A stretch of DNA of 4,894 nt from a virus (IMGVR_UViG_2713896791_000019), one strand, 5' to 3'; positions 2,244 through 4,894 are shown, counted from the first letter of the stretch. The notes: generated by a model not told the origin, from the letters alone. Program-made: numbers and translations.

Positions 2244-2882
2244 TTAAATATCTTGTTGAATTTTAAAGCATACGCCCAATATGCAAGATAGATCATCCAG
2301 CATAATTGAAGGGTAGCGAGGATTCGTGGGGACTAAAAGAATATCCGGCCCTTCTATCTCCAGTTTACGAATGACAGGTGTTGTGGTCCCTTTGGGTAAG
2401 GCAAGGACAATATTTCCTGGTTGTACGGTTCGATTGGGATCAACAAAAACTGTTGAACCATTTGGGATGGAAACTCCCCCACCAGATGTTGACATACTGT
2501 CACTCTCTAGAACAACTGCAAAGGTATTGGCCGGGATTTCTCCGACAAGCTGCACACAAGAGGTTATTGAGGAATTTTTCATATAATCACTCCAGCTTGC
2601 TGCCTGCTGAAGTGATAGTAGCGGAACCGTTTTTATCGGCGGTAAAGATAGATCAAGCGAATCACCTGTATTTAACTCTCCTCCATTAAGAAGCCAATTT
2701 TCGTTTACTTTCAATATTTTTGCCAGTGAACTTATGTAACGCGAGGACGGCGCTCCTCCACCGTTTATCCATTGACTTACGGAGCCTTTTGATGCGCCAG
2801 TGGCATTGACAAGGTCTTTGCCTTTCAGGTTTAGCGCATGCATACGTTGGGTTATGCGTTCAGATATTGTTTGCTTGCTCAT
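2244..2882 (-). CDS. cI: CI-like prophage repressor (N-terminal XRE-type HTH, C-terminal S24 LexA-like autopeptidase)
   Basis: 212 aa. LAKILKV is identical to lambda CI. C-terminal motifs align with lambda CI: SDSM (Ser129) to GNSM, VFVDPNRTVQPGNIV to LILVDPEQAVEPGDFC, VIRKL (Lys173) to FKKL, and NPRYPSIM to NPQYPMIP. Divergent from a Cro-like gene. Confidence 0.93.
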   Translation of the reverse strand: MSKQTISERITQRMHALNLKGKDLVNATGASKGSVSQWINGGGAPSSRYISSLAKILKVNENWLLNGGELNTGDSLDLSLPPIKTVPLLSLQQAASWSDYMKNSSITSCVQLVGEIPANTFAVVLESDSMSTSGGGVSIPNGSTVFVDPNRTVQPGNIVLALPKGTTTPVIRKLEIEGPDILLVPTNPRYPSIMLDDLSCILGVCFKIQQDI

Positions 2883-2973: not shown

Positions 2974-3216
2974 ATGAAAAAATCAGAAGTATTAGGCTAT
3001 TTTGGCGGAGTTGTTAAAACAGCCGCAGCTCTAGGAACGTCAAAAACCACAGTCAGCATGTGGGGGGAAGAGGTTCCGTGGAAATGGGCGTTGCTAATTC
3101 AGGCAGTCACTGCCGGGGCGCTCAAATATGAGTTACACATACCGACGGTTGTCATTCCCGGTTCTGATCATAATCCGCCTTCTAACCAAGGGGGGATTCA
3201 TGAAAATCAAGCATGA
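2974..3216 (+). CDS. ydaS: Cro-like HTH regulator of the YdaS family, 80 aa
   Basis: GGAG 6 nt upstream of ATG 2974; the ORF opens at a TTG at 2926 but that start lacks an RBS. Product MKKSEVLGYFGGVVKTAAALGTSKTTVSMWGEEVPWKWALLIQAVTAG fits the recalled YdaS/Cro-like HTH pattern. Divergent from the repressor and followed by a ydaT-like gene. Confidence 0.75.
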   Translation: MKKSEVLGYFGGVVKTAAALGTSKTTVSMWGEEVPWKWALLIQAVTAGALKYELHIPTVVIPGSDHNPPSNQGGIHENQA

Positions 3217-3625
3217 ACACATCCGCATGGCGATGAATGCCTGGGCGCGTCCTGATGGCGAAAAAGTTCCGGCAGCTGGAATAACCCAGGCTTATTTTGA
3301 GTTGGGTATGACGTTTCCTGAACTGTATGACGACAGCCATCCGGAAGCCCTGGCTCGCAATACCCAGAAAATTTTCCGCTGGGTAGAGAAAGACACCCCT
3401 GATGCAGTTGAAAAAATTCAGGCGTTGTTACCAGCGATCGAAAAGGCAATGCCACCTTTGCTGGTGGCCAGAATGCGCAGCCACAGTTCAGCTTATTTTC
3501 GGGAGCTGGTGGAGACGCGGGAGCGACTGGTGAGAGACGCTGATGATTTTGTCGCAGTGGCAATCGCCGGTTTCAATCAGATGAACCGTGGTGGCCCGGC
3601 AGGAAATGCTGTGGCAGTACATTGA
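3200..3625 (+). CDS. ydaT: YdaT-like regulatory protein (recalled 'toxin YdaT' family), 141 aa
   Basis: GGGGGG at 3190-3195, then ATG at 3200. N-terminus MKIKHEHI matches what I recall of YdaT-family proteins. Overlaps the Cro-like gene by 17 nt. The longer ORF from 3128 has no RBS. Confidence 0.7.
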   Translation: MKIKHEHIRMAMNAWARPDGEKVPAAGITQAYFELGMTFPELYDDSHPEALARNTQKIFRWVEKDTPDAVEKIQALLPAIEKAMPPLLVARMRSHSSAYFRELVETRERLVRDADDFVAVAIAGFNQMNRGGPAGNAVAVH

Positions 3626-3696
3626 CTGACAATAGCCGTATCGAATCGCTTCCGGCAACTCGTGAGTAAAAAGATTCGGTATCAGAAGAGGTGAGT

Positions 3697-4779
3697 ATGG
3701 CTAACGCCTGGCTCAGATTATGGCATGACATGCCAAATGACCCTAAGTGGCGAACAATTGCCAGGGTGTCAGGGCAGCCAATTGCAACAGTGATGGCAGT
3801 GTATATCCACCTCCTGGTGAGCGCGTCACGAAATGTCACGCGAGGTCACATTGATGTCACGACAGAAGATTTGGCAAGTGCGCTCGACGTGACAGAAGAG
3901 GTAATTGATTCAATTTTGCAGACGATGCAGGGGCGGGTACTTGATGGTGATTTAATCACTGGATGGGAAAAACGCCAGGTGCTTAAAGAGGACAACGGCA
4001 ATATTTCGCAAACCGCAAAATCTCCTGCAGAGCGCAAGAGGGCGCAGCGAGAGAGGGAAAGAAAGCGGGAACAAAATGGCGATTGTCACGGCGCGTCACG
4101 AAATGTCACGCACATGTCACGACGAGTCACGACAGATAAAGATACAGATAAAGATACAGATAAAGATACAGATCAAGAAGATCAAAACACTATGGTCCAT
4201 GGCGTAAAAAACGCCACGAACCAGGCAGGGGATGTTCAGACCGTCAATCCTGGTCAGCCAGCAGGCACGACACCGGAAGCCGATTCAGCGTATGCGCTGA
4301 AAGCCGATTCGGGCGCTGTGCAGCAGGTGATGACCGCAGGGTCGGAGCAATCACACCAACTGCAGCAGCCTGAAGCCGATTCCGCCATTCAGCGGGAAGC
4401 CGATCGGGTAGTCCCGGAAAGCACCGGGCAGTCTGTGGGACGAGTGGATTATCCGGATGTGTTCGAACAGGTCTGGCGGGAATACCCGTTGCGTGCTGGG
4501 GCAAACCCGAAGAAATCCGCTTTCAGTGCCTGGAAGGCCAGATTGCGCGAGGGGGTGCCACCAGAGACCATGCTGGATGGTGTGAGGCGTTACGCGAGAT
4601 ACCTGGCGGCGACCGGGAAAGCGGGAACGGAATTTGTTCAGCGAGCGACGACGTTTTTTGGGCCGGACCGGAATTTTGAAAACCCCTGGTTGCTCCCGGT
4701 AAGCGGCACGAACAACCAGCGTTGTGTGAATCATATTTCTGAACCGGATACCGAAATTCCGCCGGGATTCAGGGGGTGA
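3697..4779 (+). CDS. phage replication initiator / replisome organizer (functional analogue of lambda O), 360 aa
   Basis: AAGAGG at 3686-3691, then ATG at 3697 (the ORF opens at GTG 3691). N-terminus ANAWLRLWHDMPNDPKWRTIA fits the recalled replisome-organizer N-terminal pattern (W-x-R/K-L, DPK). It sits between the regulators and a helicase-loader gene and contains iteron-like repeats. Confidence 0.85.
   Translation: MANAWLRLWHDMPNDPKWRTIARVSGQPIATVMAVYIHLLVSASRNVTRGHIDVTTEDLASALDVTEEVIDSILQTMQGRVLDGDLITGWEKRQVLKEDNGNISQTAKSPAERKRAQRERERKREQNGDCHGASRNVTHMSRRVTTDKDTDKDTDKDTDQEDQNTMVHGVKNATNQAGDVQTVNPGQPAGTTPEADSAYALKADSGAVQQVMTAGSEQSHQLQQPEADSAIQREADRVVPESTGQSVGRVDYPDVFEQVWREYPLRAGANPKKSAFSAWKARLREGVPPETMLDGVRRYARYLAATGKAGTEFVQRATTFFGPDRNFENPWLLPVSGTNNQRCVNHISEPDTEIPPGFRG
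3825..3861. repeat. iteron-like array 1: four GTCACG/GTCACA repeats at 10-11 bp spacing
   Basis: GTCACG at 3825, 3835 and 3856, GTCACA at 3845. An inverted copy CGTGAC lies at 3888-3893. GACAGAAGA is repeated at 3861-3869 and 3891-3899. Confidence 0.6.
4085..4131. repeat. iteron-like array 2: five GTCACG repeats at 10-11 bp spacing
   Basis: GTCACG at 4085, 4095, 4105, 4116 and 4126. The 21-bp block GCGCGTCACGAAATGTCACGC at 4091-4111 is identical to 3821-3841. Confidence 0.7.
4132..4173. repeat. 12-bp tandem repeat ACAGATAAAGAT, 3.5 copies, A-rich
   Basis: Exact copies at 4132-4143, 4144-4155 and 4156-4167, with a partial copy to 4173. In frame they encode TDKDTDKDTDKD. Confidence 0.85.
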
Positions 4780-4785
4780 TGTGGC

Positions 4786-4894
4786 ATGAAAAACATTGCG
4801 GCAGCCGGGGTTCTTGAACGTATTCGCAGACTTGCACCACAGGCGTCGGTTCCACCGTACCGGACGGTGGAGGAGTGGCGGGAATGGCAACTTG
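4786..4894 (+). CDS. DnaC-like replicative helicase loader, 5' partial (runs off the window)
   Basis: G-run at 4772-4776, then ATG at 4786. Product MKNIAAAGVLERIRRLAPQASVPPYRTVEEWREWQL aligns with the E. coli DnaC N-terminus (MKN..., P..xxP.F/Y-K/R-T-x-EE-xxx-WQ). Immediately follows the initiator gene. Confidence 0.7.
   Translation, partial: MKNIAAAGVLERIRRLAPQASVPPYRTVEEWREWQL

Follow-up and report, generated by a model that had tools for sequence, protein, structure and literature searches.

That a replication origin can lie inside the gene of its own initiator is already known from several phages. The lambda origin comprises four iterons and a 39-bp high-AT region inside O, the iterons being 18-19-bp units with hyphenated dyad symmetry (PMC6022878), and in Stx phages replication depends on additional upstream iterons, which have been proposed to stabilise the complex or to raise the local initiator concentration (PMC7466680). 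In SPP1, oriL consists of AB boxes and a DNA unwinding element (DUE) inside gene 38, and its repeats are bound by the N-terminal domain of G38P (PMC5737612, PMC6316719). The element described here lies in the replication initiator gene of a lambdoid Escherichia coli prophage, within a stretch of 4,894 nucleotides (IMGVR_UViG_2713896791_000019; hereafter the window, with coordinates counted from its first letter).

A different arrangement, two clusters of one short repeat that serve one initiator, is represented by incC/incA of P1, incB/incC of F, and ori/crr of the satellite phage P4. P4 needs both clusters for replication, whereas P1 and F use the second one to control initiation.

The initiator gene of the window contains two helically phased arrays of the hexamer GTCACG, here termed array 1 and array 2, and an A-rich tandem repeat (the tract) that directly follows array 2 (Table 1). 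This region is probably a two-part prophage replication origin embedded in its own initiator gene. A sequence-only reading of the window had proposed a prophage origin at this place, and the proposal is supported by nucleotide-level conservation of the repeats, the gene order, the location in the protein linker, and a conserved second array.

The layout resembles that of the lambda, P22, and Stx origins, in which iterons in the initiator gene are followed by an A/T-rich linker segment between the N-domain and the loader-contacting C-domain (PMC6022878). As in lambda, N-domain and origin specificity travel together. The window differs in that (i) its initiator is no lambda O homologue (no Pfam hit), (ii) its iterons are 6-bp asymmetric direct cores every 10-11 bp and not 18-19-bp dyad units, and (iii) the DNA that encodes its folded DNA-binding domain holds a second array, ~224 bp upstream. 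Because O homology is lacking and the iterons are short and direct, the analogy with lambda is one of mechanism, not of family membership.

With SPP1 G38P/oriL the window shares direct repeats and a DUE, here a candidate, in the organizer gene, with the loader gene downstream (PMC5737612, PMC6316719). NCBI labels many E. coli copies of the initiator "phage replisome organizer", the designation of the SPP1 and lactococcal proteins (TIGR01714/PF09681). The window protein nevertheless scores 15.4 bits on TIGR01714 for a cutoff of 49.8, and the second G38P site, oriR, lies ~13 kb off as a separate origin-like region, not as an array in the same gene. Two separate clusters of the same short repeat, which the initiator would bind, also recall P1, F, and P4. 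The initiator families are unrelated, however, the arrays of those systems flank the rep gene or lie far from it rather than within it, and an A-rich linker-encoded DUE is absent from them. The window initiator is not of the P1/F RepA/RepE type, having no Rep-family Pfam hit and both arrays in coding sequence. The new traits of this locus are (i) short direct hexamer iterons one helical turn apart, (ii) a conserved second array in the coding sequence of a folded DNA-binding domain, (iii) covariation of both arrays over many specificities, and (iv) the reappearance of this layout in another N-domain family, where GGGGCTT forms the arrays and (GAACAG)n the repeat that follows.

Iteron arrays and A-rich tract in the window

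GTCACG occurs 10 times in the 4894 bp of the window, compared with 1.98 expected (standard deviation 1.32), and at least 10 copies are reached in 0/200 shuffles. Nine of the 10 copies fall inside the initiator open reading frame (ORF), which encloses both arrays and the tract. The iteron core is an asymmetric hexamer repeated directly every 10 or 11 bp, with weakly conserved flanks, and the two arrays share the same orientation. The sequence-only reading had counted four copies of GTCACG in array 1 and five in array 2, at 10-11-bp spacing. All five are found in array 2; array 1 does hold four iterons at that spacing, but three are exact and the one at 3845 is GTCACA. The exact inverted copy downstream of array 1 had not been mentioned.

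Array 1 is read as GCG TCA CGA AAT GTC ACG CGA GGT CAC ATT GAT GTC ACG and encodes residues 43-55, i.e., the end of the helix at residues 29-45 and the loop preceding helix 2 of the helix-turn-helix (HTH). Array 2 is read as TGT CAC GGC GCG TCA CGA AAT GTC ACG CAC ATG TCA CGA CGA GTC ACG. A spacing of 10-11 bp brings the hexamers into all three reading frames. The inverted iteron encodes D-V-T in the HTH turn, and its Val is GTG in 19/19 cases. The exact duplication of a 21-bp block, two iterons with an AAAT spacer, is confirmed. The identity extends on neither side and is not exact in Pseudomonas or Aeromonas homologues; it fits either occasional exchange between the arrays or a shared constraint.

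The A-rich 12-bp repeat that had been noted right after array 2 is present, although in 3.9 copies and not 3.5. Its units are 97% matching by Tandem Repeats Finder, with one mismatch in the last unit. G+C content across the tract falls to 27-32% (40-nt windows), compared with 45-65% in the surroundings, and the tract is 71% A+T, compared with 46% for the whole ORF. Two GATC (Dam) sites lie at the tract end (4166-4185, aGATCaagaaGATCaaaac), with AGATCT at the same place in several homologues; these sites may bear on control of the origin by methylation or SeqA.

An imperfect palindrome follows the tract (DNA fold -8.7 kcal/mol, z=-3.05) and is the sole feature above shuffle expectation in a promoter/terminator scan of 3500-4400. 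A strong hairpin just past the tract is frequent, not universal, among related loci (12/52, binomial p=8e-6), some of which have perfect G+C-rich hairpins, e.g., tctctctctcctgacggagagagaga in locus L021. The palindrome recalls the inverted repeat to the right of the lambda ori.

Table 1. Candidate origin elements, initiator domains, and neighbouring genes in the window
Feature	Position	Strand	Basis or remarks
Replication initiator ORF ("phage replisome organizer"), 360 residues	3697-4779	+	ORF list, phrog_3729
Predicted winged-helix DNA-binding domain, ~residues 1-98	3697-3990	+	AlphaFold2 model
21-bp block GCGCGTCACGAAATGTCACGC	3821-3841	+	Identical to 4091-4111
Array 1, direct iterons GTCACG, GTCACG, GTCACA, GTCACG at 3825/3835/3845/3856	3825-3861	+	Spacing 10, 10, 11 bp
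Single inverted iteron (CGTGAC on + strand)	3888-3893	-	27 bp past array 1
Array 2, five exact GTCACG at 4085/4095/4105/4116/4126	4085-4131	+	Spacing 10, 10, 11, 10 bp; linker residues 130-145
Tract, ACAGATAAAGAT x3.9, candidate DNA unwinding element, encodes TDKDTDKDTDKDTDQ	4132-4178	+	Tandem Repeats Finder
Mosaic junction, origin/N-domain module and C-terminal module	4155-4184	.	E. coli genome matches
C-terminal half, DnaD/DnaT-like, presumed helicase-loader contact	4184-4779	+	phrog_1701 "DnaD-like helicase loader", phrog_18526
Imperfect palindrome, TGGTCCATGGCGT aaaaa ACGCCACGAACCA, possible accessory element	4193-4223	.	Sequence scan, DNA fold
S24/HTH cI-like repressor	2244-2882	-	
P22-Cro-like gene	2974-3216	+	
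YdaT/cII-like gene	3200-3625	+	
DnaC-like ATPase gene start (helicase loader), runs off window	4786-4894	+	"ATP-binding protein" in matching E. coli genomes

Conservation at the DNA level

Sixty-four loci with homologous N-domains were fetched from one-genome-per-species contigs, along with phage and E. coli variants. Codon use was compared in 21 GTCACG-type loci (mean pairwise nucleotide identity 68%) at codon columns with a conserved amino acid. The commonest third base of degenerate codons has a frequency of 0.957 in the hexamers (n=10), compared with 0.540 outside them (n=40, Mann-Whitney p=1.2e-6). Within the hexamers, 21/21 loci use GTC for Val, ACG for Thr, GGT for Gly, and CAC for His, and 20/21 use TCA for Ser. 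Elsewhere in the gene, Pro, Val, Gly, Arg, and Ala residues that are just as invariant draw on all their codons. The repeats are conserved at the nucleotide level beyond codon constraints, a comparison that the sequence-only reading had itself suggested and had named as a possible refutation: synonymous sites in the hexamers are frozen among the 21 homologues.

The tract is likewise under selection as DNA. In related loci it usually takes the form (C/T)AGATAAAGATAAAGA, CAGATACAGATACAGA, or GAGAAGAGGAGA, with a 6-nt period. A fixed window of 42 nt past the last linker iteron has a mean A+T content of 65%, compared with 44% for the ORF, and a coding-strand purine content of 73%, compared with 57% (Wilcoxon p=1.6e-10); it is the richer of the two in 54/54 loci on both counts. 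In hosts of at least 55% G+C, the tract uses GAT:GAC for Asp at 61:5, compared with 282:376 in the rest of the gene (p=5e-16), and AAA:AAG for Lys at 84:46, compared with 153:266 (p=2e-8), these counts coming from an automatic purine-tract finder that sometimes took the upstream basic-helix coding region. Given such codon counts in G+C-rich hosts, the A/T richness of the tract is maintained against codon bias.

Arrays across related loci

The comparison was extended to 58 related loci from alpha-, beta-, and gamma-proteobacteria and Acidobacteria, and a periodic array is present in the linker zone of 55 of them. About 30 loci carry GTCAC(G) at +95/+105/+115/+126 from the MPNDPKWR motif and again at ~+345 to +395, and most GTCACG-type loci have the inverted copy at +159. 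These ~30 loci come from Enterobacterales, Pseudomonas, Aeromonas, Bordetella, Acidovorax, Chromobacterium, and others, with a locus G+C content of 34%-69%. More distant homologues have other iteron cores: GTAACG, CGAACG/GAACGC, GGAACG, GTGACG, AACGCC, and ACTACG.

The two arrays covary. The 5-mer of the linker array occurs at least twice on the same strand of the array-1 zone in 43/55 loci, with a mean of 2.87 copies compared with 0.12 in control windows of the same loci. An invariant Arg-Gly of the loop is accommodated differently by the two main iteron types: in one (ACG|CGN|GGT-CAC) the Arg codon lies in the spacer, and in the other (GAA-CGC|GGN|CGA-ACG) it lies inside the iteron. The sequence-only reading had considered two separated arrays unusual; both are indeed present, but they are no peculiarity of the window, array 1 being conserved and covarying with array 2. 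As about a dozen loci hold the linker array alone, array 2 is the nearly universal element and array 1 a widespread addition. In E. coli UTME-14 and E. albertii (L003 and L006), a 21-bp insertion expands array 1 to six copies and yields the peptide ...NVTTCHGVSLRGH..., and this two-iteron insertion indicates that the loop of the DNA-binding domain tolerates array growth. The distance between the arrays is 250, 258-262, 270, 278-281, or 350 bp, and 222-262 bp in CGAACG-type loci, with no constant phase.

Initiator protein

The placement of arrays and repeat inside a replication-initiator ORF is upheld by the identity of that ORF, which aligns from end to end with the profile of phrog_3729 ("replication initiation protein"; E=7.5e-253; residues 1-360, profile positions 1-356 of 356), and by the lambdoid gene order. 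Without an alignment, the AlphaFold2 (AF2) model of the full-length protein is uninformative, with a mean predicted local distance difference test (pLDDT) score of 45. Modeling of the N-domain with a 40-sequence alignment predicts a winged-helix fold with pLDDT values of 87-95 over residues 11-40 and 51-90. The predicted helices span residues 16-25, 29-45, 56-63, and 67-77 and are followed by a short beta wing at residues 78-87; from helix 56-63 through the wing, pLDDT values are 88-95. Beyond this domain, a basic helix (residues 110-127) is predicted to lead into a disordered segment (residues 128-170, pLDDT <50 over the array 2 region). Thus, array 2 and the tract encode the predicted disordered linker, and array 1 encodes a loop between helices 29-45 and 56-63. 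Weak Foldseek matches of the N-domain (none at E<0.001) are mostly winged-helix regulators of the MarR, CRP, and DtxR types.

The loop peptide encoded by array 1 (SRNVTRGH or SNATERGRTQ) was considered as a determinant of iteron specificity. This role is unlikely because L042, L059, and L060 have (C/G)GAACG linker arrays with unrelated loops and no array 1.

The C-terminal half has a weak match to the DnaT C-terminus and travels with the downstream DnaC-like gene. Its linker contains the sequence AAGCCGAT four times (4277/4301/4373/4397, to 4404; 0.17 expected), in a single frame and with spacings of 24/72/24. These repeats reflect a peptide duplication, EADS/KADS/EADS/EADR, which is partly missing in the O157 variant.

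Modular inheritance and distribution

The N-domain, both arrays, and the tract are inherited as a single module, and recombination with C-terminal/loader modules occurs exactly at the tract end. Accordingly placed breaks are seen in E. coli genome matches, which cover either 3600-4154 or 4184-4894 alone. The partners of the module include (i) the DnaC-like gene in the window, (ii) a DnaT-like C-half with a lambda-P-like gene, (iii) a 609-aa protein in Pseudomonas phages, and (iv) a "replicative helicase" in an Aeromonas phage. Conversely, an O157:H7 prophage has the same C-half fused to a different N-half at ...DKNTMVHG. In lambdoid O genes, the N-domain sets origin specificity and the C-domain loader specificity, and the module pattern here is alike.

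Of 5426 complete E. coli genomes, 1817 carry the module (3697-4180), a single genome holding as many as four copies, and the module also occurs in Pseudomonas and Aeromonas phages and many other proteobacterial prophages. The wider 1295-bp region (3600-4894) has four places in strain 2013C-3264. With up to four copies in one genome, co-resident prophages may share initiator specificity and cross-activate each other's origins. The N-domain occurs in 26 phage records, with no classical model phage among them, and the gene annotations read only "hypothetical protein" or "phage replisome organizer".

The window-type C-half with a different N-half is found at L069:1481-2572 (E. coli O157:H7 86-24 prophage) and also in L098-L140, with the same layout. 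The iteron of L069 is GGGGCTT at 11-bp spacing, in arrays at 1667/1678 and 1923/1934/1945 that lie 256 bp apart, the second being followed by a (GAACAG)n purine repeat. This layout is kept in relatives at 78-96% identity, in which both arrays encode EGASKGL.

Proposed origin model

Array 2, with one iteron per helical turn, and the adjoining tract would form the core origin, as their layout matches that of experimentally defined intragenic origins, in which phased iterons precede an asymmetric A/T-rich tract in a linker, in some cases with a palindrome, and a loader gene lies downstream. The winged-helix N-domain of the initiator would occupy neighbouring iterons along a single face of the DNA, and the distortion caused by the bound protein would open the A-rich tract. 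The downstream DnaC-like loader and host DnaB would then be recruited by the C-terminal half. Array 1, with the inverted copy at 3888, most likely binds the same initiator protein, because selection acts on its DNA sequence and array 2 has the same iterons. In this auxiliary position it would be likely to raise the local initiator concentration or to stabilise a looped origin complex, and it may also feed back on transcription from the early promoter.

Several observations weigh against this model. The initiator matches zero Pfam families at E<=0.01, including lambda O (Phage_rep_O), PF09681, and Rep families. Its alignment with TIGR01714 (phage_rep_org_N), which places residues 5-125 on profile positions 1-119, is sub-threshold (E=0.016), as are all its matches in an NCBIfam search; distant kinship with the TIGR01714 family is possible. 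A Foldseek search of the PDB with the N-domain model returned no match at E<0.001. Lineages that differ in iteron core have almost the same recognition helix (residues 67-77) and wing, and the association of iterons with the initiator could in part reflect physical proximity, both arrays being inside the gene. Array 1 is not essential to the family, as ~12/55 loci lack it and have the linker array only (e.g., L042, with seven CGAACG). A rigid, helically phased loop between the arrays was rejected, the distance varying over ~220-350 bp without conserved phase. Literature searches on GTCACG, replisome organizers, and two-cluster phage iterons yielded no paper on the iterons or origin of this initiator family.

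More speculative is the idea that a large and unstudied class of proteobacterial phage initiators shares a bipartite intragenic origin, with one array in the linker beside the unwinding element and another that runs in three reading frames through the codons of the DNA-binding domain; such a generalisation is tentative and rather doubtful at present. The GGGGCTT layout of the O157:H7 prophages, whose N-domain looks unrelated, hints at convergence on the bipartite design.

Alternative explanations

Array 1 may instead be mainly a negative control element that takes no part in origin activation. This possibility, although unlikely, survives best among the alternatives and has two forms: (i) the initiator bound to array 1 blocks or attenuates early-promoter transcription of its own gene and the loader gene, or (ii) array 1 pairs ("handcuffs") with array 2 and limits firing, as in the P1 and F plasmids. 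Iteron plasmids offer established cases of an origin array paired with a control array. Array 1 also lies in the 5' part of a transcribed gene, in the same orientation as array 2, and its absence from about 12 of 55 family members is as expected of a modulator. On the other hand, a lytic phage has no obvious need of copy-number control, and Stx phages need their additional upstream iterons for replication rather than being inhibited by them (PMC7466680). Both a positive and a negative role of array 1 fit the present data.

It is improbable that the arrays are not origin iterons of the initiator but serve as sites for some other protein, for example the YdaT/cII-like one, a further phage regulator, or a host factor. 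Such a partner would be in keeping with a recognition helix and wing that hardly change across iteron cores. The arrays are, however, inherited with the N-domain while the upstream regulators differ, these being racR/ydaS/ydaT, relBE with an HTH gene, cI/cro with unrelated small ORFs in Pseudomonas, or a DicA-like gene in Aeromonas. Moreover, iterons followed by an A/T-rich linker tract are the layout of known intragenic origins (PMC6022878, PMC5737612).

Even less probable is a role of the tract, and perhaps of the arrays, as a shared "linker" homology that promotes module recombination and has no direct function in replication. The E. coli mosaic junctions at the tract end (Table 1) and the similar AGATAAAGATAAAGA tracts in lineages with different iterons are compatible with this idea, which nonetheless leaves the helical phasing, the frozen synonymous sites, and the covariation of the cores unexplained. 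Selection for evolvability hardly accounts for conservation that spans Acidobacteria to Enterobacteria, and the breakpoints are explained just as well if a conserved functional tract in a disordered linker gives rise to them incidentally.

Finally, there is very little chance that the repeats have no function as DNA and stem from protein-level constraint or from a duplicated peptide. The peptide ASRNVT does occur twice (residues 43-48 and 134-139), and protein alignments show conservation of the motif, but a peptide repeat as the cause of the iterons is effectively refuted by hexamers read in three frames and by synonymous positions that are invariant in them while equally conserved residues elsewhere use all codons. 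The "conserved" linker peptide CHxxSRNVTxDKD falls in the predicted disordered segment, and the ORF also contains a real peptide duplication (AAGCCGAT x4) whose copies, unlike the iterons, stay in a single frame at multiple-of-3 spacings.

Gene context

The window covers the immunity and early-replication region of the prophage, in the order cI, Cro, cII-like gene, initiator, and DnaC-like gene (Table 1). It contains no Rfam family. The ORFs on its left side are broken by two 50-N runs (523-572 and 1952-2001, masked or unresolved). Upstream of the repressor, the conserved phage ORFs phrog_2151 (216 aa) and phrog_751 (51 aa visible before the N run), both of unknown function, are encoded at 1137-1942 on the minus strand, and phrog_4274 lies at 915-1136 on the plus strand.

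Implications for prophage replication

If the two-part origin is confirmed, a replication origin would be defined for a very common prophage class, including those of pathogenic E. coli, and it would become apparent which co-resident prophages share initiator specificity and could cross-activate. Should the bipartite design hold true, the binding sites would be locked to the domain that reads them, such that recombination could not part specificity from its sites, and the arrays could form a looped initiation or autoregulatory complex. The locus would also offer a clean natural system for studying how a coding sequence fits a phased array of binding sites in three frames and what a second iteron array adds to a lambda-style origin.

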